Assembly (NCBI GenBank): GCA_965206745.1
Contig: OZ242220.1
Span: 1,152,001-1,216,000 of the forward strand
Source of the DNA: Nitrosopumilus sp.
Lineage (GTDB): Archaea; Thermoproteota; Nitrososphaeria; Nitrososphaerales; Nitrosopumilaceae
Reading direction: 5' to 3'
DNA: 64,000 nucleotides
The notes below the pieces were generated by a model, which was given only the letters and a program-made list of their open reading frames with translations, did not search any database and was not told the DNA's origin. Below, one piece after another: positions 2,375 to 63,204 of the stretch (positions are counted from its first letter, which is position 1; each line of letters opens with the position of its first letter). Both the position numbers and the translations under genes were made by a program.

Positions 2375-4147
2375 ATGCTGAAATTTCAAGGCAAACTCGC
2401 ACTAATTACTGGCGGTGGTACAGGCATAGGCCAAGCAATCGCCAAGAGGTTCGTAGAAAACGGTGCCAGCGTAATCATCATGGGTAGACGAAGGGAGCCA
2501 TTAGATGAAACATCAAAGATGCTAGAGGGGATCATCTCTGAAAAAAATAGCGGGGCATCAGTCAGGATATTTTCAGGTGTGGATGTCGCAGATGAAGCTG
2601 CAATGAATGGAATGTTTGAATCACTAAGTAAAGACAGCATTACAATAGATTACCTAATTAACAACGCAGGAGTTTCAGGTCCCGTAACGTGTTTTGCAAA
2701 TGCGACAATGGATGAATTTAAAAGTACAATAGCAATTCACCTGACAGGTACGTTTTGGGGATCTGTTCAAGCATTAAAGGTAATGAAACAGGGCGCAAAA
2801 ATAATTACAATCTCAACATTTTTCACAGAGGAGCGACCATTAGAACAGAGGCCCTACAGGTTTAGAAGTCCATATACAGCATCACAGGGCGCCAAAAATA
2901 GATTGGCAGAGCTGATGTCTTGGGAATTGACAGAGAAGGGGATTATTTCAATTGCGACAAATCCAGGCCCCGTTCATTCAGATAGGATTTACAAGACGGT
3001 GTATCCAAAAGCCGCTGCAGAATTTATGAGGGTCAGTGGATTCGAAGATCTAGTTCCCACAGAGGTGGATGCAGCAAATAAAGAACTGTTGGCATTGCTA
3101 GGAGAGGACGAGGGAGTAATCAAAGAAGGAATTGCAAAAGCTGCTCAAAAACTGGCAAACGGTAAGGATGCCAGCAAGCTTGCAGAGACGTTTACAAACC
3201 TACTAAATAAGATTCAAACCATAGCTGAAAAAGTTCAAAACAACACATCGCATATGATTGCAAACCAAGAATTTCTATCACAGGAGCAGGTTTCAGAATC
3301 AGTTCTTAACTTGTGCGATGATCATATAGCAAAAATACTAAACGGCAAAGTGATTCCAGGGGACAGAGTGTTTTATCCTGTAAAACCTCACATCGGAACT
3401 ACAACGCCGGGAGTCCACCAACCTGACTTTGCAGGAAAAGCAGTTGTCTTTACAATTGATGCAACAGACAAAACAGATGCGCAGAGGGTTGAATTTTTGG
3501 CACAGCATGTTGAAAAGAACGGAGGCAAAGTAGCATGCTTTATCTCACAGACGACCCCGACAGAACTTCAAGAATACATCAGTGGCAAATTCCACTCACA
3601 TGTTGTAGATATTAAAAATGCCAAAGAGGTTGAGAGGTGGCTAAACACGGCCAGAACAAACATCGGAGAAGTTCTAGGAGTGGTTCACGTTACAGGAAGG
3701 TTGACTGAGGGCATAAAGTTAACAGAACTGTCACGTGCTCAATGGGAAGCACTAGTTGAGAAATTCATATCCACCCCTGCAAATGTGGCACAAAGGGCAC
3801 TAGAGCAGTTCGTACCGGGAGGAAACAGAGATCCTCGACTGTACAAAGATGCAAGGGGAGCAATCATGATTATCGGCCCCGACCTGCCAATTGGGAGAAA
3901 AGTGACCGGAACACAAAGGGCACAAATAGAAGTCTTTAGGGGGGCACTAAGGCCATTTACCACAACTGTAAACCAGGAGCTAAGCGATGTGCTAAAATCA
4001 CGGATCAGAATGTTTACAGTCCTCCCAGGTTCTGTAACAGGTTCAGAGCCAGATAACCAAAGAATTGCAGATGCATTTAACTTTCTAGTCTCGGAGAGCT
4101 CTGCCTCATCGTCAGAAGTGACCTTCTGTATAGACGAATCAAGATAA
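2375..4147 (+). CDS. Two-domain SDR oxidoreductase resembling the C-terminal half of bifunctional malonyl-CoA reductase
   Basis: TGGGTGIG, GRR (NADP-type), DYLINNAG, YRFRSPY (YxxRxxY), PGPVHSDR; second degenerate Rossmann domain in the C-terminal half. Confidence 0.85.
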   Translation: MLKFQGKLALITGGGTGIGQAIAKRFVENGASVIIMGRRREPLDETSKMLEGIISEKNSGASVRIFSGVDVADEAAMNGMFESLSKDSITIDYLINNAGVSGPVTCFANATMDEFKSTIAIHLTGTFWGSVQALKVMKQGAKIITISTFFTEERPLEQRPYRFRSPYTASQGAKNRLAELMSWELTEKGIISIATNPGPVHSDRIYKTVYPKAAAEFMRVSGFEDLVPTEVDAANKELLALLGEDEGVIKEGIAKAAQKLANGKDASKLAETFTNLLNKIQTIAEKVQNNTSHMIANQEFLSQEQVSESVLNLCDDHIAKILNGKVIPGDRVFYPVKPHIGTTTPGVHQPDFAGKAVVFTIDATDKTDAQRVEFLAQHVEKNGGKVACFISQTTPTELQEYISGKFHSHVVDIKNAKEVERWLNTARTNIGEVLGVVHVTGRLTEGIKLTELSRAQWEALVEKFISTPANVAQRALEQFVPGGNRDPRLYKDARGAIMIIGPDLPIGRKVTGTQRAQIEVFRGALRPFTTTVNQELSDVLKSRIRMFTVLPGSVTGSEPDNQRIADAFNFLVSESSASSSEVTFCIDESR

Positions 4148-4149
4148 GA

Positions 4150-4602
4150 ATGATAAAGTTCTCAGAGTTTAGAGTGGGTGATGCATTTTATTCCACATGC
4201 AGTATTTCAGACAAAGAGCTAGAAGAATATCTAAAATTTTCCAGAGTCAAAAACGCATTCTTGAAAGATAAAAGAGACGGTGGGCGACAACTAGTATCCG
4301 GAAGAGCAATCCTGTCAAGGATGGAGGGGGAATTTACCAGACTGACTCAGGTTTATGGAAATGATATAATTTTTCTTGGGACAGACGGGGATTCTCAATG
4401 GAAAAATAGGAACACCAGATTTCTCAAACCATTCTATACGGATCAGGTATTGAAATTGAAATTTACAATTTCACAAAAAGAAGACATTGATGAAGAATTT
4501 GGGAAAATTTTTGTTGATTATGAGGGGACCTTGCAAGAGGGCAAAATCATAGTAATATCAAAGAAGAATATCTACAGGATTAAAAAAGAGCCACCCAGAT
4601 AG
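4150..4602 (+). CDS. Hotdog-fold (MaoC-like) protein
   Basis: N-terminal FSEFRVGD, LVSG..IL, RFLKPFYTD..L pattern typical of MaoC dehydratase-like hotdog proteins; 2 nt after the SDR. Confidence 0.6.
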   Translation: MIKFSEFRVGDAFYSTCSISDKELEEYLKFSRVKNAFLKDKRDGGRQLVSGRAILSRMEGEFTRLTQVYGNDIIFLGTDGDSQWKNRNTRFLKPFYTDQVLKLKFTISQKEDIDEEFGKIFVDYEGTLQEGKIIVISKKNIYRIKKEPPR

Positions 4603-4852: not shown

Positions 4853-5623
4853 TTAAATTCTTGAAAAAAATAATTCAAGTGAATTTTCAAATTGCTTATT
4901 TAATTTTTGAAGATGGGCCGTATCTACCAAAAGAGCCTGTTCATCAAACCAAGGTTTTGACAAATACAAATTCCTATTCATCTCAACTTGAATCCAAGGA
5001 ATCGGGTTATTTCCATATGTTCTGATAATACGCCCTCCATGAAACGGGTCATTTAGGGAGATGTCTTTTCTGCCTATGCCATAAGATTCTGAGATAGAGT
5101 CAGCTAAAAGTTCCAACATCTCTTGTGATGATGTTTCCCCATCATTGTTTGACAAACAAAACAACGGTCTCTTGTTGTTATTTCCATCTGGTGAAATTTC
5201 TGGCGCAACTGATGCCATAGAATGACAATCCAAACACAATTGTAAATCTAGTTTTTTGAGAGATTGTTCAATAGATTTATGATACGGGTTATAATACAAC
5301 TCGATCAGTAGAGTTCTAAGAGCATCATCAGGTTCCTTATTTTCAACATAGATTGGTTTCCGATAACAAGTCAAACTCTTGATCAAGCCGTCGGGATTAT
5401 CAGGAGGCATGTCTTGTAATGAACGATTAAGATCAACAAATGCGCGGGCAATATTTGTCTTGATTACACGTTGAACTTTATCCCCTAAATCATACAGATC
5501 CACTGCAAAAGGATCTGAATCATCAAACAGATCTTTGTGTGTAATAGACAAATGGCCTGCAAGTTCTGCAGGCTTTTGCATCCCACCGTGCGGAATTGAT
5601 AGCAATACAGGAAGTGTATTCAA
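4853..5623 (-). CDS. N-formylglutamate amidohydrolase family protein
   Basis: SIPHGG, DSDP, ARAFVDLNR, YYNPYH, LDCHSM, NDPFHGG, IQVEMNR.LY motifs intact. Confidence 0.9.
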   Translation of the reverse strand: MNTLPVLLSIPHGGMQKPAELAGHLSITHKDLFDDSDPFAVDLYDLGDKVQRVIKTNIARAFVDLNRSLQDMPPDNPDGLIKSLTCYRKPIYVENKEPDDALRTLLIELYYNPYHKSIEQSLKKLDLQLCLDCHSMASVAPEISPDGNNNKRPLFCLSNNDGETSSQEMLELLADSISESYGIGRKDISLNDPFHGGRIIRTYGNNPIPWIQVEMNRNLYLSKPWFDEQALLVDTAHLQKLNKQFENSLELFFSRI

Positions 5624-7252
5624 TTAAATGCCCTCTGCGATCCCATCACGCCTGACCTCTGCCACGCCATGAAATTCATTTTTCGATTGACATTTCATTA
5701 TTGCATGAATTGCACCATGATAAAACGAGTATCTGTCCTTTACAGAAATTTCATAGCCCATTTCCTTGAGATATTCAATTATTTCAGTACGAAATCCCCC
5801 ATCCTCAATGCTGACAGTGCCATTAATGGAGCAATGGAATCGGGGTTTCTCTATTGCAGTACTCATTGACAGATCCCCATCAATTAGCCTTGAAAGAAAC
5901 TGCGTGATGGTAGAGAAGATCCTCTGGCTGCCAGGACTGCCAAGCACCATCCAGAGCTTTGAATTGTTGAAGACCAAGGCAGGGGATACAGAAGTCCAAG
6001 GAATGGAGTTGGGTCTGACATAGAAAGGATGGTTCGGATTTGTGAATTCAAATGCAGACATGTAATTATTGTATAGAAACCCCAAGCCATCAGCTGCTGT
6101 CTTTGAACCATACACAAGTTCCACGGACTGGGTGATCCCTACTGCATTTCCTTGATCATCCATGGTGGAGAGATGGGTTGTGTCTTCGCCTCCAAAATCA
6201 GGATCTATCATCGGCAAAGTGGCATCCATCGAATTGTGTATTGATTCGGCCATCTGTTTTGCAAAGGATCTTTGGAGATGAACCTTCTCCTCAATTTGAT
6301 CATAGGTATGGCGGTTAAATGGCTGTTGCATTCTGTGCAGGAATGCCTTTCTGAAAGTTTCTGCAACAAAATGGTACGAGCCGGGTTTTGAGCTACGTAG
6401 AAACTTTGAAGGCAGATGGTTGAGCATCATCAATGTAAGTAGCAATGTATTTCCCGCAGCAGGAGGGGGCAGAGTGACGACTGAAACGTGACGGTATTTT
6501 CTGCTAATGGTCTTTCTTTGAATGGGTTCAGGAATATATGCCAAATCTTCTTCCTGAATCAACCCACCATTATTTTTCATGTCCTGGGCAATTTTTTTGG
6601 CAATTTCACCATGGTAAAAAATCTGATACCCGTATTTTGAGATCAATGTGAGTGTTTCAGACAGATCTTCTTGGATGAATCTATCCCCGACATCATATGG
6701 CACTAGGCCGTCTTTGAGAAAGTATTTTGCTCCAGATTTTGACTTGATCGAAAGGAAATTTTCCAGCTCCTTCTCTTGCAAATCATGTTGGAGTTGGGTG
6801 ATTTTGTATCCTTTTTTTGCAATGTGGATTGACGGCGCAACAATTTTTTGCCACTCTAAACTACCGTACCTTTCATGTAAAAATCCAATCAAGGCAAGAG
6901 TACTAGGAACAGTGGTTGCCTTGTATCCAAGACGACGATTTTTCTTGTTTGCATATACAGAAGAGTGAACCAGTGAGGGGGACCTGCTAGAACCGTCAAT
7001 TGCGTATGATTTTCCATCGACATGGATAATCCCCATAGATTGGCCTCCGATTCCAGATGCCTGAGGCTCACACACACCCAACGCAAGGGCAGTCGCACAG
7101 GCAGCATCAATGGCATTTCCGCCTTTTTTGAGCATGTCTACTCCAGCTTTAGTAGCATCAGAAAAGGCTGATGAGACCATTCCTTTTTTTGCAACAGAGC
7201 ATTTTTTGTCAGATGTCTGTTTGAACGAATTTTCTATCTGCTCGACGTTCAT
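5624..7252 (-). CDS. ggt: gamma-glutamyltransferase family (Ntn hydrolase), cytoplasmic
   Basis: GGNAIDAA, EPQASGIGG, TVPSTL, PPPAAG, autocleavage site ED/TTHLS, GSPGS, PRFH; no signal peptide. Confidence 0.92.
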   Translation of the reverse strand: MNVEQIENSFKQTSDKKCSVAKKGMVSSAFSDATKAGVDMLKKGGNAIDAACATALALGVCEPQASGIGGQSMGIIHVDGKSYAIDGSSRSPSLVHSSVYANKKNRRLGYKATTVPSTLALIGFLHERYGSLEWQKIVAPSIHIAKKGYKITQLQHDLQEKELENFLSIKSKSGAKYFLKDGLVPYDVGDRFIQEDLSETLTLISKYGYQIFYHGEIAKKIAQDMKNNGGLIQEEDLAYIPEPIQRKTISRKYRHVSVVTLPPPAAGNTLLLTLMMLNHLPSKFLRSSKPGSYHFVAETFRKAFLHRMQQPFNRHTYDQIEEKVHLQRSFAKQMAESIHNSMDATLPMIDPDFGGEDTTHLSTMDDQGNAVGITQSVELVYGSKTAADGLGFLYNNYMSAFEFTNPNHPFYVRPNSIPWTSVSPALVFNNSKLWMVLGSPGSQRIFSTITQFLSRLIDGDLSMSTAIEKPRFHCSINGTVSIEDGGFRTEIIEYLKEMGYEISVKDRYSFYHGAIHAIMKCQSKNEFHGVAEVRRDGIAEGI

Positions 7253-9426
7253 TTTTTTGCTTGTCCGTTTGATGCCAGTTTGTTTAACACCAGTGCCAAC
7301 AAGACACCTCTGTCAACCATGCTGTCTTTTAAAATATATTCATTGGGAGTTCTGTAATCGGTACCAATAGGACCCATTCCTCCAACCATCGAGATGTCTT
7401 GTAAGACGTTACATAGACTAGAAGTTGCAAACCTATGTGTGGATTTAACTTTTATGTCTGCATCCTCTGCAGTTTTCTGAATCAGATCATACAAGCTTGA
7501 GATTTTTTCAGAGTTTTCCACAGGATCTCTTGTAGCTTGTTTTGAAATATGAATATCCAATTTTGATTGATCTTTCTTTTTAGCAATCCTGTGTAATTCT
7601 GAATCAAACCTTTGCCCTTGTGCTAAATTTGAATATCGTGATTCTAAAGATAATTGCCCATACTGGGGGGATCTTCCAAAAGAGGTTCTTGCTCGAAATT
7701 CAGAGATGGTAATTCTAGCATCATCATGATCTTCGGAGACTTTCTTCCAGGAGACTATTTTCTTGCACATATCAGGGATCACATCTTTGATTGTTTCATC
7801 ATGACGCCTAACGTGGGTCAGATCAACATGATACCTAGTGATGCCAGAGCAAGATGTTACAATTCCGCCGTTTTCCAGTCCCCACTTTAGCTCAATAATG
7901 TTTTTTGAGATTTTTGCAGTATCATATACTAGCTGCTTGCTAAATCTTCCACCCAAGCTATCATCAGTGATTAGTAAGACTCCACATTTTAGGTTCTTGA
8001 GCTTTCTAGCAAAACGCAGGGATTTTAGTGCTGCAAGCATGGTCACCAAACCTCCTTTACTTTCAGCAATGCCTGAACCGTAGAGCTTGTTACTAATCTT
8101 GTAAAAAGGCGTGAAATCCTGATTGGCATACCAAGTATCAAGATGTCCCAAGAGCAAAACGTCGTTTTCCTCAGAGTCATGGTTAGTAAAATACAGCATA
8201 TTTCCAACATCAAATTCGTGGTATTCTTGAACGGTGAATCCGAGGGGTGAGAGTCTCTTGGTCATCATTGTGCCAAGTTTGTTGACATCCTCCAGATTAG
8301 TTACACTAGAGTTTACATTTACAAGATGTTCAAGCAGTGCTTCGTTTGTCGTTGCATGGCTTCTGATATGGCTTCGCACTATAGAGCGTAGTGGTTGCGA
8401 TTCAACATTCTCTGAAGATTCTTCATGTTTGTGGGATTCCCCAAAATAGCGCAAGGCTGCAACATCAAGCATTTTGTTGATTAGCGAATCATATGTGTAT
8501 CCGGCACTCTGGGCGGCGGCAAAAAAGGATCCAGTAAGACCCAAGCTGGCCATGGAATTTAGCTCCAGAACATAAAAATTCCCATCTGCATTCATTCGAA
8601 AATCAACGCGGGTGAAATCATTTAATCCCAATTTTTTAAATGCCGCAAGGGAGATCCTTTTGATTTCTGCGGTTTGTTCCTCTGTTAGCAGTGCGGGACA
8701 TATTTTATCTACAGGGGTCTGTTTTTTGTCACTGATGGTCTGAATGCGGTTTGGATCCCCATTAAGATCCATCTCCACGATTGGTAGAATCTCAATATTG
8801 TTGCCATTACCCAACAATCCAACTGCAAATTCTCTGCCAGCAATAAACTGTTCCACTAAAATCTCCTGAGAATATTTCTCCATCTGTTTTACAACTGCTT
8901 TGTGTAAATCATCCCAATTATCAACTACCTCCATTCCCATGGATGTGGATTCCATTTTTGGTTTCACGATTACAGGAAATACCAGATCATCAAAGGTATC
9001 ATCAGGTGATGAAAATACCCAGAAACCAGGAGTGGGAAGATTGTTTTTCTGTAACACGATCTTCGTCATCACCTTATCTTGGACAACTGCATGAGTTTCC
9101 GGACCAGAGCCAGTATATGGAATTCCCAGCATTTCAAGCATAGCAGGTACGTGTGTGTAGCGATTCTGCCCTTGGATTCCATAAGCCATGTTAAACACCA
9201 TGCCGGGCCTCTCCCCTGAAACAACTCTTGGCATGAAATTTTTCATGTCATCGATAAAATTCATCCCTCCTTCGATGATCTTTACAGAGTGACCCCCTTT
9301 TTCCAAGGATTTGGCAACTTTCTCTACAGTTTTGGTACTATAGTGCTCTTTAGTAACCATACCAAAGACATTGATCACGTCATTTTCATCAACTGATTTT
9401 TTGTTATAAACGATAGCTACTTTCAA
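7249..9426 (-). CDS. D-Ala-D-Ala ligase-like ATP-grasp domain fused to an M20/M25/M40 peptidase-like domain
   Basis: N-half: GIPYTGS, DKVMTK, FPVIVKP, LVEQFIAGREF, RVDFR, LELN; C-half: LLLGHLDT, LYGSGIAESKGG, GMGPIG...TPNEY. Confidence 0.88.
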   Translation of the reverse strand: MKVAIVYNKKSVDENDVINVFGMVTKEHYSTKTVEKVAKSLEKGGHSVKIIEGGMNFIDDMKNFMPRVVSGERPGMVFNMAYGIQGQNRYTHVPAMLEMLGIPYTGSGPETHAVVQDKVMTKIVLQKNNLPTPGFWVFSSPDDTFDDLVFPVIVKPKMESTSMGMEVVDNWDDLHKAVVKQMEKYSQEILVEQFIAGREFAVGLLGNGNNIEILPIVEMDLNGDPNRIQTISDKKQTPVDKICPALLTEEQTAEIKRISLAAFKKLGLNDFTRVDFRMNADGNFYVLELNSMASLGLTGSFFAAAQSAGYTYDSLINKMLDVAALRYFGESHKHEESSENVESQPLRSIVRSHIRSHATTNEALLEHLVNVNSSVTNLEDVNKLGTMMTKRLSPLGFTVQEYHEFDVGNMLYFTNHDSEENDVLLLGHLDTWYANQDFTPFYKISNKLYGSGIAESKGGLVTMLAALKSLRFARKLKNLKCGVLLITDDSLGGRFSKQLVYDTAKISKNIIELKWGLENGGIVTSCSGITRYHVDLTHVRRHDETIKDVIPDMCKKIVSWKKVSEDHDDARITISEFRARTSFGRSPQYGQLSLESRYSNLAQGQRFDSELHRIAKKKDQSKLDIHISKQATRDPVENSEKISSLYDLIQKTAEDADIKVKSTHRFATSSLCNVLQDISMVGGMGPIGTDYRTPNEYILKDSMVDRGVLLALVLNKLASNGQAKK

Positions 9427-59604: not shown

Positions 59605-60711
59605 TTATTGTTTGGCTTTTTCACGCAATACAGGCATTACATGGCTTGCAAATTTATCAATAGAGCCAAAGTAATTCTTGCCCCAAAATCTAATTACAAA
59701 GTGGTTTACACCAGCCTTCATGAATCTTTCAAATGTCGGAATCACATCTTCTGGAGTACCAACAGCAGTTGATGAACGTGCTATAGCATCAGGGATTTTG
59801 GTTGCAGCATCCCTCATCTTTACAATCCAGCTTTGGTCAGACATTGAATATTCTGTAAAGTATTTTACAAAATCAAATCCTTCGATCTCCTTCAAGCCGT
59901 GAACCCTCAAAATTTCAGGCTTGAATAGACTGACTTTAACTGCCTCTTTCATCTTGGCCCAGGATGCTTCGGCATCATCAGAGAAATAGACATCAATATC
60001 TAATGCAAATTCAAAGTTGTCCTTTTCTTGCTGAGTTCTGTTGTTGGCATCCATTGAAACTTCGATCTGTCTTTTGTGATCTTCAAATAGTTCGGGAGTG
60101 TAACCTATTGGCAACCAGCCATCACCGAGCTTTCCAGTTAATGCAAGGGTTCGCTTACCTCCAGATGCCATGTAAGTTGGCGGATGTGGTTTTCTAATCG
60201 GAGAAGCTTGCAAGCATGCGCCTTCAAGCTGGTAATATTTTCCTTTGTAATTTACAGTATTGTCTGGTGTTGATTCGTATAATGTGTGAATGGTTTCGAT
60301 CTGCTCTTCCCACTTTGAAACAGGCTTTTCAAATGGAATGCAAAATTCTTTCAGATTCTGTGCTTCGCCTGCTCCAATTCCCAATATTGCCCTGCCCTTT
60401 GAAACTCTGTCCAGAGTGATTGCAGCCAGTGCAATGTTTGAGGGATGTCTTCTAATTGCATCAGTTACACAGGTTCCCAGTTCCACATTATTTGTAACGG
60501 CTGCAATTGCAGATAACATGACCCAAGGGTCAAGAACGGTTGCATTTTTCCATTGTGGGACATTTGTATGATCCATATAGAAGATTGAATCATAGCCAGT
60601 CTTATCAGCAAGCATGCATGCAGTTAAAATTTGATCCTCAGTATATCCGGCTCTTGCAACGTTTAGGCCATTTTGAATACCAAATTTTAGCTTCTTATCT
60701 GTCAAGTACAT
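59605..60711 (-). CDS. LLM-class (luciferase-like) flavin/F420-dependent oxidoreductase
   Basis: AD..GYDSI...DH, DPW..L.AIAA.T..V.LGT.VT, RHP, LD..S.GR.ILG.GAG, G..GDGW. Confidence 0.9.
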   Translation of the reverse strand: MYLTDKKLKFGIQNGLNVARAGYTEDQILTACMLADKTGYDSIFYMDHTNVPQWKNATVLDPWVMLSAIAAVTNNVELGTCVTDAIRRHPSNIALAAITLDRVSKGRAILGIGAGEAQNLKEFCIPFEKPVSKWEEQIETIHTLYESTPDNTVNYKGKYYQLEGACLQASPIRKPHPPTYMASGGKRTLALTGKLGDGWLPIGYTPELFEDHKRQIEVSMDANNRTQQEKDNFEFALDIDVYFSDDAEASWAKMKEAVKVSLFKPEILRVHGLKEIEGFDFVKYFTEYSMSDQSWIVKMRDAATKIPDAIARSSTAVGTPEDVIPTFERFMKAGVNHFVIRFWGKNYFGSIDKFASHVMPVLREKAKQ

Positions 60712-60804: not shown

Positions 60805-61749
60805 TTACAAATTACCTGCTTTGATATCTTCAAGGCACTTTACGACATCGTTTTTGGATATTGGAATTGGGTTTGGATCCAAATGTCCCTTATCTGTCAT
60901 TACCGTATCTGCGGCTTCGGAGACATCAGTTTTGAGTTCCAATTTATCAAAACCCAGCTTTTCCATGGCCTCTTTGAATCTATCATAAAAGATTGACTTG
61001 TTATGTTTGTGTGCAACGGTAGTACAGGAGGACAGTGAATATCCATGAGGTACACCCTCATTTGAGAACACATAGGACAATGCATGTCCCAAGGTTGTAG
61101 AGCAATTACCAAATCCCATTCCAGACAACATTGATCCGTATGGATAGTTTTCTGGCTTGTCATTGATGATTGCGTCATACAGGATATCAAATGCTTGCTT
61201 GCACAGAGTTCTTGTCAAGTCATTGCCGAGCTTGCTATCATAGCCTTCAGTAGCTTGAGCACAAGCATCACAGACAGAGTTGTTTATGACTTGCTGTGGA
61301 GTTCCATCTAAAAAGTAGGAATCTACAACGGCCATATCGGCTAGAAATCTGTCCTCACGTAATAATTTCTTTTTACCATCAAACTTTAGAACGCAATAGG
61401 TTGTCATCTCAGCTCCAGTTCCAAATGTGGTTGGAATTAAGATTTTTTCTTTTTTCATCTCAGGTGCAGCATATTTTACTACATCCATAGAACTTCCACC
61501 ACCAAGTCCAATTAGACATGATGGGTCTTTGTCTTTGAATTGTGAAATAACAGCAGTTACGTCATCCATTGATGGTTCAGGTTTTACCTGGTCATACAAC
61601 ATGTAATCCGTAATTCCCATTCTTGCAATCCACTTGTCAGAAAGTTCAGGAGGAACTGTTGTAACAATTAGGGCATTTTTTGGATATTCTGTTTCACCAA
61701 GTGCATTTTCTCCAAATTTGATAACTTTTGGAATGCGTACTGTATTCAT
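60805..61749 (-). CDS. Iron-containing alcohol dehydrogenase; probable malonic semialdehyde reductase of the 3HP/4HB cycle
   Basis: GLGGGSSMDVVK, IPTTFGTGAE.T, D...QA.E, GHALS, VPHG; short AOA type next to an LLM gene, as recalled for the characterised Nitrosopumilus enzyme. Confidence 0.8.
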   Translation of the reverse strand: MNTVRIPKVIKFGENALGETEYPKNALIVTTVPPELSDKWIARMGITDYMLYDQVKPEPSMDDVTAVISQFKDKDPSCLIGLGGGSSMDVVKYAAPEMKKEKILIPTTFGTGAEMTTYCVLKFDGKKKLLREDRFLADMAVVDSYFLDGTPQQVINNSVCDACAQATEGYDSKLGNDLTRTLCKQAFDILYDAIINDKPENYPYGSMLSGMGFGNCSTTLGHALSYVFSNEGVPHGYSLSSCTTVAHKHNKSIFYDRFKEAMEKLGFDKLELKTDVSEAADTVMTDKGHLDPNPIPISKNDVVKCLEDIKAGNL

Positions 61750-62127: not shown

Positions 62128-63204
62128 CTAGCAAAAATTTTGAGTAATGTACACTTTATCATCAGAGGAAATCACCACACCAATTCCTTCTCTGTCGTAT
62201 GTTGCTGTCAGAATATTTTTTCGGTGACCCGGAGAATCCATCCACCCATCGACTGTGGATTTAGTCAAGTCATCCAGAGAATTCCAATCATAAGATGTGG
62301 GTATGCCATTAACATGCCAGAATGTATCATACAGATTGTTTTGGAAGATATTTTCTGCAATGCCACTATAAATTAGATTTCCAACTATTTTGCGGCACTG
62401 ATATCCTACCGATGTACCCCTATCCGTAGGATCATATCCTTCAGGGGTTTGATGAGAAAAATAATCTCGCGTTGCCATGTCCCTGCTATGTTTTCTTGCA
62501 ACGTCAGATAATTGCCCATCCCAGGACAATGCCTTGAGATCGTTTTGGATACGATATTGATTAGTGAGACTGTGAACCTGCCTTTCCAATTCTCCTGCAT
62601 CAATTACGGGTTTGTTGTTAACAGGGTTATTTTCTTGAACTGTTTTAGGAATACCAGCAGTGTCATCTACTATGTCATCTGTTGTGGTTGGTTCAACTGG
62701 AGCAATCTGCTCACTGATGGTATCTGGAATACCAGCAGTGTCATCTATTGAGAGCGGTTCAACTGGAGCAATCTGCTCACTGATGGTATCTGGAATACCA
62801 GCAGTGTCATCTATTGGGAGCGGTTCAACTGGAGCAATCTGCTCACTGATGGTATCTGGAATACCAGCAGTGTCATCTATCAAGCCAGCTGGAAGTTGTG
62901 ATTTTATGAGGACAGGTTGTTGATCAATTATCTCCCTTATTTTTGATACCGTCTCTTTAGTGATATTTTTTGCTGTATTACTAGCATCCTGAATTATCTT
63001 GGGGGCATTTTGAATTGTCGTATCAAAAAATCCCTGATACCATAAAAAGAATCCAAATCCCACAATTAATACAAAAACAATCCCCACCATGACGGGTTTT
63101 GTTTTGTTTCCAGAATGCTTGGAATTTGGGTTATGGCCAACGCCATCATATCGATTGTCATATTTTCCTCCTACCCACCCTCTCCAATCATCAGGATCAT
63201 CCAT
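62128..63204 (-). CDS. CAP/SCP (cysteine-rich secretory) domain membrane protein with repeat stalk
   Basis: Single TM; LTNQYR....L..L.WD..L..VAR.HS.DMA...YFSH, AENI, WMDSPGHRKNIL, Y.TQNFC. Confidence 0.9.
   Translation of the reverse strand: MDDPDDWRGWVGGKYDNRYDGVGHNPNSKHSGNKTKPVMVGIVFVLIVGFGFFLWYQGFFDTTIQNAPKIIQDASNTAKNITKETVSKIREIIDQQPVLIKSQLPAGLIDDTAGIPDTISEQIAPVEPLPIDDTAGIPDTISEQIAPVEPLSIDDTAGIPDTISEQIAPVEPTTTDDIVDDTAGIPKTVQENNPVNNKPVIDAGELERQVHSLTNQYRIQNDLKALSWDGQLSDVARKHSRDMATRDYFSHQTPEGYDPTDRGTSVGYQCRKIVGNLIYSGIAENIFQNNLYDTFWHVNGIPTSYDWNSLDDLTKSTVDGWMDSPGHRKNILTATYDREGIGVVISSDDKVYITQNFC
62690..62880 (-). repeat. 66-bp in-frame tandem repeat x3 (IDDTAGIPDTISEQIAPVEPLP/S), plus a partial copy at 62648-62670
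   Basis: Units start at 62690, 62756 and 62822 on the + strand; near-identical. Confidence 0.95.

Follow-up and report, generated by a model that had tools for sequence, protein, structure and literature searches.

A free-standing tandem short-chain dehydrogenase/reductase protein of Nitrosopumilus as a candidate malonyl-CoA reductase of ammonia-oxidizing archaea

Ammonia-oxidizing archaea (AOA) rank among the most numerous microorganisms of oceans and soils, and their 3-hydroxypropionate/4-hydroxybutyrate cycle is reportedly the most energy-efficient aerobic CO2-fixation pathway. The genes for the reduction of malonyl-CoA, succinyl-CoA and acryloyl-CoA in the AOA cycle are still listed as unknown, at least in the openly accessible portions of the literature, and pathway assignments from genomes, as well as metabolic models and marker sets, work around the missing reductase genes. 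The question of which AOA protein might be the malonyl-CoA reductase (MCR) is raised by a stretch of 64 000 nucleotides from Nitrosopumilus sp. (assembly GCA_965206745.1, contig OZ242220.1, positions 1 152 001–1 216 000 of the forward strand; hereafter the window), in which a gene at 2375–4147 (+) encodes a 590-residue tandem short-chain dehydrogenase/reductase (SDR) protein. We propose that this protein is the NADPH-dependent, aldehyde-forming malonyl-/succinyl-CoA reductase of the thaumarchaeal cycle, a proposal in which our confidence is evenly balanced.

The open reading frame (ORF) of the 590-residue protein begins with ATG and is separated by two bases (TAA GA ATG) from a second ATG-initiated ORF on the same strand (4150–4602), which encodes 150 residues. 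The source assembly (1.86 Mb, 99.6% complete) holds a single copy of the SDR gene; the next SDRs of this genome share 29–34% identity with it, over the N-terminal domain only. In relatives labelled Nitrosopumilus the protein is annotated merely as 'SDR family oxidoreductase'. The Pfam family adh_short matches residues 7–203 (E = 3.1e-39), no Pfam match is found past residue 203, and all NCBIfam matches lie far under their cut-offs. Conservation was assessed in 32 aligned AOA orthologues with identities down to 44%. The classical Rossmann motifs of SDRs are present, namely the Gly-rich dinucleotide-binding motif TGGGTGIG (residues 12–19; 2408–2431, +), in which Thr12, Gly13, Gly15, Thr16, Gly17, Ile18 and Gly19 are invariant, and the likewise invariant NNAG (residues 96–99). 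The invariant Gly37-Arg38-Arg39 after strand 2 (2483–2491, +) is the likely site for the 2′-phosphate of NADP, with Arg38 aligned to Arg616 of Roseiflexus MCR. Further strings located in the translation are VRIFSGVDVADEA (residues 63–75), TIDYLINNAGVSG (90–102), STFFTEE (147–153), PYRFRSPY (160–167; YRFRSPY is encoded at 2855–2875) and YTASQ (167–171). The ORFs and motif strings on which the initial annotation was built are all present in the translation at the places it gave.

A sequence search of the PDB returned two full-length bifunctional MCRs as the best matches, those of Chloroflexus (8hjw; E = 6e-39) and Roseiflexus (8hi4), and in both of them the query matches SDR domain 1 (SDR1) as well as SDR domain 3 (SDR3). 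The AlphaFold2 model of the 590-residue protein, built on the 32 AOA orthologues, has a predicted local distance difference test score (pLDDT) of 89.5 and a predicted template-modeling score of 0.90. It consists of an N-terminal SDR domain broken by helices at residues 203–221, 228–241, 246–260 and 266–294, followed by a second β/α domain (residues 355–578). MCR structures occupy ranks 1–24 of the Foldseek search (E = 2e-29 to 1e-22), with C-terminal fragments and full-length proteins first (2e-29 to 6e-27) and N-terminal fragments next (2.5e-25); single SDRs follow from E = 1e-14 onward and span one third of the model. Structural alignment with VIA-align gave Z scores of 33–37 over 487–523 residues for all of the N-terminal (MCR-N) and C-terminal (MCR-C) structures. 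The alignment to MCR-C reached Z = 36.8 over 518–523 residues (rmsd 3.0–3.5), that to MCR-N Z = 34.0 over 487 residues and that to the best single SDR Z = 27.1 over 256 residues. An ordinary FabG-like SDR was therefore ruled out, since MCRs come first in both structural rankings and single SDRs account for one third of the model. On the model, the protein is a free-standing tandem of a catalytic SDR domain and a pseudo-SDR domain, a module that occurs twice in bacterial MCR; the expectation of a stand-alone relative of the MCR half-modules is thereby borne out by the structural comparisons and by the PDB sequence matches.

The helical insertion and degenerate second SDR domain first surmised from the sequence are both seen in the model and in its superposition on the tandem-SDR MCRs. 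The insertion forms a four-helix 'lid' (residues 205–299; 2987–3271, +) at the same site as the 150-residue extra domain of MCR-C. Its first helix (residues 205–222) is invariant at 12 of 18 positions and its middle part (residues 223–275) at 0 of 53. The second SDR-like domain (residues 353–590; 3431–4144, +), which aligns with the SDR4 and SDR2 domains of MCR, is predicted to be non-catalytic and has neither a Gly-rich cofactor motif nor a Tyr/Lys pair. Of its 238 residues 17 are invariant, including Phe521, Arg522, Gly523, Arg526 and Pro527 of the sequence FRGALRP (residues 521–527; 3935–3955, +), which was placed by hhalign on the degenerate 'active-site' helix of this domain; a role of this patch in CoA binding is conceivable.

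The classical SDR catalytic tetrad is Asn-Ser-Tyr-Lys, with the last two residues in a YxxxK motif. The 590-residue protein keeps Thr148 and Tyr167 at the Ser and Tyr positions and departs from the tetrad elsewhere. The replacement of the YxxxK lysine by glutamine, remarked on in the initial annotation, is a fixed trait, with Gln171 at position Y+4 in 32 of the 32 orthologues. Lys174 lies three residues further on (Y+7), giving the spacing Y-x6-K, the mirror image of the Lys741/Gln744 arrangement of MCR-C. His122 (2738–2740, +) aligns to the tetrad Asn of MCR-C and is invariant in the 32 orthologues, with His also in the corresponding bacterial domains described below. Thr148 (2816–2818, +), the equivalent of the catalytic Ser/Thr (Roseiflexus Ser731 and Thr165), is invariant, as are Arg38 and Arg204. 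The segment YRFRSPYTASQGAK (2855–2896, +) contains the predicted carboxylate-binding and catalytic motif Tyr161-x2-Arg164-x2-Tyr167 together with Gln171 and Lys174, and aligns to Tyr731, Arg734, Tyr737, Lys741 and Gln744 of the Chloroflexus enzyme CaMCR; Tyr161, Arg162, Phe163, Arg164, Pro166, Tyr167, Thr168, Gln171, Gly172 and Lys174 are all invariant. Immediately before the lid, PGPVHSDR (residues 197–204; 2963–2986, +) is invariant from Gly198 to Arg204 and ends in the equivalent of CaMCR Arg773, for which R773A and R773Q variant structures are among the PDB entries matched. Between Thr148 and Tyr161 lies a loop of 12 residues, FFTEERPLEQRP (2819–2854, +), that is close in length to the 11 residues found in SDR3 and twice as long as the six of SDR1. 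This loop (residues 149–160) has pLDDT values below 50 at residues 151–153 despite five invariant positions (Glu152, Glu153, Gln158, Arg159 and Pro160), as would be expected of a substrate-gated element.

The available text of the Roseiflexus MCR study (mBio, 2023) states that SDR1 and SDR3 have a conserved YXXRXXY in common, that this motif binds the malonyl carboxylate, that the Tyr743-Arg746 pair protonates the leaving CoA-S−, and that Arg616 is a ligand of NADP+. The same text attributes substrate choice to an insertion in the SDR core, which consists of small cover helices in SDR1 and of a 150-residue extra domain (Leu783–Thr932) in SDR3. The motif occurs in both halves of MCR, so it is not diagnostic of the CoA-reducing half; the initial annotation had taken it as a signature of that half, a view contradicted by its conservation in the aldehyde-reducing SDR1, which is also seen directly in our alignments.

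We infer the substrate, the cofactor and every chemical step of the reaction by homology with the Roseiflexus and Chloroflexus MCRs. TGGGTGIG and Arg38/Arg39 would bind NADPH in the N-terminal Rossmann domain, and the malonyl (or succinyl) group would be held at its free carboxylate by Tyr161, Arg164 and Tyr167. Hydride would attack the thioester carbonyl, polarized by Thr148 and Tyr167, and the leaving CoA thiolate would be protonated through the Tyr161-Arg164 pair. The malonate semialdehyde released in this way would then be reduced by a separate Fe-dependent alcohol dehydrogenase (Fe-ADH). The flexible loop and the four-helix lid may close over the substrate, with the C-terminal pseudo-SDR domain serving as a scaffold that helps to form the pocket. 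The proton relay is predicted to be rewired: Y+4, the usual Lys position, is taken by Gln, Lys lies at Y+7, and His substitutes for Asn.

Relatives of the 590-residue protein were searched for among 1.84 billion cluster representatives. The protein shares 34% identity over 604 residues with P0125 (5572 residues) and 33% over 621 residues with P0126 (5945 residues), and a motif scan showed that its signature, Y..R.PYT..Q..K, recurs in proteins of 675–6910 residues. We refer to catalytic domains with this signature, and to the modules containing them, as type C. The usual partner of type C in these proteins is a second YxxRxxY domain, here named A′, with a short loop of six residues and the classical YxxxK. 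Named carriers of such fusions are a Chlamydiota metagenome-assembled genome (MAG; 6910 residues) and a Deltaproteobacteria MAG (2552 residues); in proteins from these MAGs and in two unnamed proteins, ligase, hydratase and Zn-dependent alcohol dehydrogenase (Zn-ADH)-type domains occur with type C in one chain. A scan of species-representative genomes with P0139 (1135 residues) located eight Acidobacteriota loci and one Rickettsiales locus. The type C module is N-terminal and A′ C-terminal in all eight Acidobacteriota loci, in proteins of about 1130 residues. At L047, L051 and L052 the C+A′ ORF overlaps, or begins 16 nucleotides past, a same-strand ORF of 1034–1940 residues, and at L049 the tblastn match begins 75 nucleotides past a 2377-residue ORF, with the ORF call beginning later. 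The upstream ORFs of L049, L051 and L052 contain ACAS_N, AMP-binding, ADH_zinc_N and ECH domains.

A domain set of AMP-binding ligase, Zn-ADH-type reductase and enoyl-CoA hydratase characterizes the propionyl-CoA synthase of the Chloroflexus 3-hydroxypropionate bi-cycle. Because type C travels with propionyl-CoA-synthase-like domains, the family sits in contexts that lead from malonyl-CoA to propionyl-CoA. There is strong circumstantial evidence in this gene context that the bacterial C+A′ pair converts malonyl-CoA into 3-hydroxypropionate. In proteins P0125, P0126, P0152, P0170 and P0202 and at loci L047, L049, L051 and L052, a propionyl-CoA-synthase-like giant is fused with or lies upstream of a two-module MCR-like protein of reversed order, and on sequence evidence this arrangement could be an unrecognized malonyl-CoA to propionyl-CoA megaenzyme; a literature search on the Acidobacteria operon gave no report on a propionyl-CoA synthase and MCR arrangement. 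The bacterial C+A′ proteins belong to the same clade as the AOA protein and share its motif and its His; they differ from it by the second catalytic SDR module and often by additional ligase, hydratase and Zn-ADH domains.

A tree of 63 catalytic domains contains four strongly supported clades, type C, SDR1, SDR3 and A′, with no resolved order among them. The type C clade is supported at 100/100 and the AOA proteins are nested inside it, with P0125 as their sister (97/89). Profile–profile comparison places all four module types at roughly equal distances. Judged from these comparisons, type C is a third lineage of the tandem-SDR modules that make up the bacterial bifunctional MCR. The label 'MCR-C-like' given to the protein at the outset therefore stands as far as it denotes an MCR half-module, and the particular affinity with MCR-C is favored weakly, because hhalign places the protein equally far from MCR-N and type C forms a third clade. 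Like MCR-C (SDR3–extra domain–SDR4; Chloroflexus, Roseiflexus and Porphyrobacter; 8a30, 8j2c, 8hi5 and 6k8s), type C has a catalytic SDR and a pseudo-SDR in tandem, an insertion that immediately follows PGPxxxR in the catalytic domain, the YxxRxxY motif, the catalytic Ser/Thr, the Arg773 equivalent, the Arg for the NADP 2′-phosphate and a long loop before the motif. The AOA protein differs from MCR-C in being a stand-alone chain of 590 residues rather than half of a four-SDR chain of about 1220 residues, in its low identity (about 20%) and its separate clade, and in the Lys and Gln positions, the His for the tetrad Asn and the shorter lid. MCR-N (SDR1–SDR2; 8aew, 8hi6 and 6k8v), the malonate semialdehyde reductase, shares the tandem layout, YxxRxxY and the catalytic Thr; unlike type C, its SDR1 has the six-residue loop, small cover helices, the classical YxxxK and Asn.

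Which of the two MCR reactions the AOA protein would catalyze is thus the central issue. Weaker arguments favor reduction of the thioester. Scored with the AOA profile, the SDR3 domains of two full-length MCRs reach 85.4 and 83.5 bits and their SDR1 domains 74.5 and 71.4 bits, a difference of 11–12 bits, and the superposition on MCR-C takes in about 30 residues more than that on MCR-N; the 12-residue loop resembles that of SDR3 rather than the short loops of SDR1 and A′; A′ keeps the YxxxK of alcohol-forming SDRs; and AOA have retained type C only, the malonate semialdehyde reductase of these organisms reportedly being an Fe-ADH.

Several observations weigh against an acyl-CoA reductase. Type C lacks the Lys at Y+4, and in the Roseiflexus enzyme mutation of this residue abolished activity, according to the available text (mBio, 2023). 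The hhalign scores are tied (286.6 for MCR-N and 286.4 for MCR-C), type C pairs weakly with SDR1 in the free tree (77/44) and the A′ module groups weakly with SDR3 (81/78); the grouping of type C with SDR3 was not rejected by the approximately unbiased test (p-AU 0.486). The lid has 95 residues versus 150 in the extra domain of MCR-C. Equivalents of Arg799, Lys807, Lys919 and Arg1164 could not be mapped, as hhalign is unreliable across the extra domain and SDR4; likewise, in hhalign comparisons with classical SDRs for lid lengths, MCR-N and A′ gave usable alignments and the type B and type C lids were mis-aligned. In the bacterial fusions, either module, C or A′, may be the one that reduces the thioester. 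No genes of the cycle were seen flanking the SDR gene in AOA, which leaves it without a pathway link there. Furthermore, the homology has been visible since 2006 and the gene is still absent from the 2021 papers of the Berg group, by which further enzymes of the cycle have been characterized; failed attempts may lie hidden behind this silence.

Some of these points would be accommodated if the protein were a semialdehyde reductase like MCR-N, forming the hydroxy acid from succinate or malonate semialdehyde while YxxRxxY holds the carboxylate, an alternative that we regard as unlikely. YXXRXXY and the Ser/Thr–Tyr pair serve aldehyde reduction in SDR1 (available text of mBio, 2023), the structural fit to MCR-N is nearly equal to that to MCR-C, the hhalign tie and the pairing with SDR1 in the free tree point the same way, and the 2018 metabolic model, in its accessible part, lists succinic semialdehyde reductase without a gene. 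Against a semialdehyde reductase stand the SDR3-like loop and profile score, a lid roughly double the SDR1 cover helices in size, and the partner A′, whose short loop and YxxxK are those expected of the alcohol-forming half. It would also leave both acyl-CoA reductions without an AOA-wide candidate. AOA moreover possess Fe-ADH genes for semialdehyde reduction, a function known for this family from earlier reports. The Fe-ADH ORF that the initial annotation pointed out in the window is real (60805–61749, −; Pfam Fe-ADH, E = 7.8e-25) and is a candidate for the step from semialdehyde to hydroxy acid. A luciferase-like monooxygenase gene (59605–60711, −) adjoins it, and another such gene adjoins the SDR gene in a Nitrososphaeraceae-type locus (L031:4985–6061), which may be a coincidence.

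The distribution of the SDR gene was examined in a class sample of 201 genomes and an order sample of 41 genomes from 20 families; the class counts include one unpublished genome, G132, without which each falls by one, of 200. The SDR gene is present in 136 of the 201 class genomes, comprising families f1 (114/114), f2 (5/5), f3 (14/14) and f5 (2/2) and the source genome itself; it was not found in f4 (0/1) or in the nine other families of the class sample (0/64). Archaeal amoA is present in 135 of the same 201 genomes, the sole mismatch being G193 (97% complete), which has the SDR gene and no amoA match. In the order sample, the SDR profile and amoA match the same 12 of 41 genomes, and neither was found in the other 29 genomes (16 families), 18 of which are at least 90% complete. 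The orthologues have lengths of 576–643 residues. Two of the 136 genomes have an SDR gene that appears damaged: in G162 the match begins at residue 38 and contains one TAA, and in G143 it is split between two frames at residue 524. In G172 the gene is cut by the contig end. The 590-residue SDR gene, rated as probably core in AOA by the initial annotation, is a core, single-copy gene of AOA and occurs in every ammonia-oxidizing archaeon searched.

Co-occurrence with amoA would fit any trait of the AOA ancestor, and the substrate of the protein could instead be a different carbonyl compound with a carboxylate, in a pathway that is specific to AOA and has no relation to carbon fixation. The rewired catalytic residues could mean new chemistry, and no cycle gene adjoins the SDR gene in AOA. 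We consider this improbable in view of the bacterial relatives, which sit in malonyl-CoA to propionyl-CoA enzyme sets, and of the malonate-binding residues of MCR, all of which are kept.

Candidate families other than SDRs suit the role poorly. No member of the aldehyde dehydrogenase (ALDH) superfamily (PF00171) was found in 12 of the 114 Nitrosopumilaceae genomes (G056, G100, G115, G020, G059, G086, G110, G135, G141, G148, G149 and G175), which are 97–99% complete, eight of them being single contigs; ALDH-superfamily genes occur in 55 of 64 non-AOA relatives. Their absence from these near-complete genomes indicates that ALDH-type enzymes are not universal parts of the AOA carbon cycle. The source genome contains two Asd/ArgC-type genes only. 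The malonyl-/succinyl-CoA reductase of Sulfolobales belongs to the aspartate-semialdehyde-dehydrogenase family, works by covalent thiol catalysis and reduces both CoA esters with one enzyme. It resembles the proposed AOA enzyme in reaction and pathway position and offers a precedent for a dual role; its fold is unrelated. We tentatively extend the proposal to a single type C enzyme with a relocated Lys that would perform both the malonyl-CoA and the succinyl-CoA reductions and that the AOA ancestor would have acquired from a bacterial megaenzyme lineage (Acidobacteriota, Chlamydiota or Deltaproteobacteria), a scenario that is possible and at present rather doubtful. For succinyl-CoA reductase, KEGG attaches this label to Nmar_1608, an assignment that one paper calls incorrect.

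The spacing between Tyr167 and Lys174 brings a further enzyme class into consideration. Enoyl reductases of the FabI/InhA type have a Tyr-x6-Lys spacing and no catalytic Ser, and the protein could on this ground be a FabI-like enoyl-thioester reductase that supplies the missing acryloyl-CoA reduction. The Pfam enoyl-ACP reductase model matches it with E = 5.5e-33, and the MaoC-type protein encoded next to it would fit enoyl-CoA chemistry. Type C shares with FabI/InhA the Lys at Tyr+7 and differs by Thr148, the dicarboxylate-binding Tyr/Arg residues and the tandem MCR architecture. Thr148, Tyr161 and Arg164 are invariant, whereas acryloyl-CoA has no free carboxylate to be bound; adh_short outscores the enoyl reductase model; and no FabI-type structure is among the Foldseek and VIA-align matches listed, which does not exclude that family. 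The usual acryloyl-CoA reductases are Zn-ADH-type enzymes. Each of the 41 order-sample genomes contains genes of this type (five in the source genome), which weakens the enoyl-reductase reading, and the bacterial megaenzymes carry a Zn-ADH-type reductase domain for the enoyl step. The acryloyl-CoA reductase is also without a gene in AOA in the accessible part of the 2018 metabolic model; an identity of the SDR with this enzyme is nevertheless very unlikely.

The 150-residue protein (4150–4602, +), which is translationally coupled to the SDR gene, was taken at the outset to be a hotdog-fold protein, and this label agrees with its structural matches on a model of modest quality (pLDDT 63.6). Two chance-level rows aside, the ORF matches no family of Pfam or NCBIfam at E ≤ 1, and Pfam MaoC_dehydratas is not matched. 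The model shows the order strand–helix–long helix–four strands of a hotdog fold. Foldseek gave 44 matches at E ≤ 0.001, and every match listed is a hotdog-fold protein. Among PDB structures, the best are 1q6w (E = 1.5e-5, TM-score for the query 0.67), 4ffu, HTD2, HadAB and PhaJ; since these are all MaoC-like or other hotdog proteins, the assignment to a hotdog fold holds. Among named Atlas clusters, those closest to the protein are MaoC dehydratases (0.91–0.95). The catalytic residues of (R)-hydratases are Asp and His. In the stretch Ser31-Arg32-Val33-Lys34-Asn35-Ala36-Phe37-Leu38, the corresponding positions are taken by Val33 and Leu38.

The initial annotation raised the possibility that the two proteins work together. 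The two-base gap on the same strand, and an adjacency that is kept in most Nitrosopumilaceae, would suit an obligatory two-subunit enzyme. The hotdog gene is, however, patchy, occurring in 100 of the 201 class genomes as against 136 for the SDR gene (f1 96/114, f3 3/14, f2 0/5 and f5 0/2). In f3 its matches are interrupted by stop codons and distant from the SDR gene. Within the genus of the source genome, five genomes (G032, G105, G139, G160 and G131) retain the hotdog gene as fragments next to an SDR gene that is intact, and a further six gave no hotdog match. A gene so often lost or decayed beside an intact SDR gene is dispensable, and its protein does not keep the (R)-hydratase catalytic residues. 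Predictions of the complex of SDR and hotdog protein scored 0.00 in two runs, which speaks neither for nor against binding. From this gene distribution, the hotdog protein appears to be an accessory, decaying companion rather than a required subunit, and an obligatory partnership is scarcely credible.

Other neighbors of the SDR gene vary. In the window, three genes lie on the reverse strand at 4853–9426, encoding an N-formylglutamate amidohydrolase (256 residues), a γ-glutamyltranspeptidase (542 residues; both identified by Pfam) and a 725-residue ORF that by eye resembles a D-Ala-D-Ala-ligase-type ATP-grasp enzyme fused to a peptidase. In distant AOA, a TauE/SafE-family permease gene is convergent to the SDR gene at six of eight loci (L025, L026, L030, L035, L037 and L041); the window carries the hotdog ORF and the N-formylglutamate amidohydrolase gene at this position, with no evident functional link. 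Elsewhere in the window, a 358-residue ORF (62128–63204, −) contains the stretch DDTAGIPDTISEQIAPVEP three times before its C-terminal domain.

A candidate of this kind has been put forward before, as the initial annotation allowed. Hallam et al. (2006), in the accessible text, described in Cenarchaeum symbiosum an SDR with 32% identity to Chloroflexus MCR in its N-terminal domain and named it tentatively as malonyl-CoA reductase; by its description, this SDR is probably the orthologue of the 590-residue protein. Candidates are also mentioned in a supplement of the N. evergladensis genome paper, according to the part of that paper that is accessible. The malonyl-CoA reductase of AOA is nonetheless listed as unidentified in the 2018 metabolic model (accessible part) and in a 2020 MAG study, the step appears with no gene attached in the accessible portions of the 2021 Berg-group papers, and a marker resource of 2026 offers no marker for MCR in the N. 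maritimus-type cycle, so that the unassigned status noted for this enzyme at the outset has persisted. The searched literature, which covers few subscription journals, contains no assay of a type C SDR, and a report elsewhere is possible. New here are the structural proof of an MCR-module architecture, the recognition of type C as a third lineage in which the Lys is relocated, a distribution that coincides exactly with that of AOA and the bacterial context of ligase, hydratase and reductase domains.

On the grounds of homology, distribution and association, the 590-residue SDR is the best available and a well-supported candidate for the long-missing step. A universal, single-copy candidate with a homologue of solved structure and with named residues reduces the problem to a question about one protein. 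If the proposal is correct, the gene would provide a marker for the archaeal cycle, the protein a compact, oxygen-tolerant malonyl-CoA reductase for the production of 3-hydroxypropionate, and its active site an example of a working SDR in which the catalytic Lys is shifted by one helical turn. The bacterial fusions would then point to an unnoticed 3-hydroxypropionate metabolism in Acidobacteriota and Chlamydiota. Should the AOA enzyme also prove to be a dual reductase of bacterial origin, type C would represent a third independent solution to the reduction of malonyl-CoA, and the 3-hydroxypropionate route would be far commoner in bacteria than is known.

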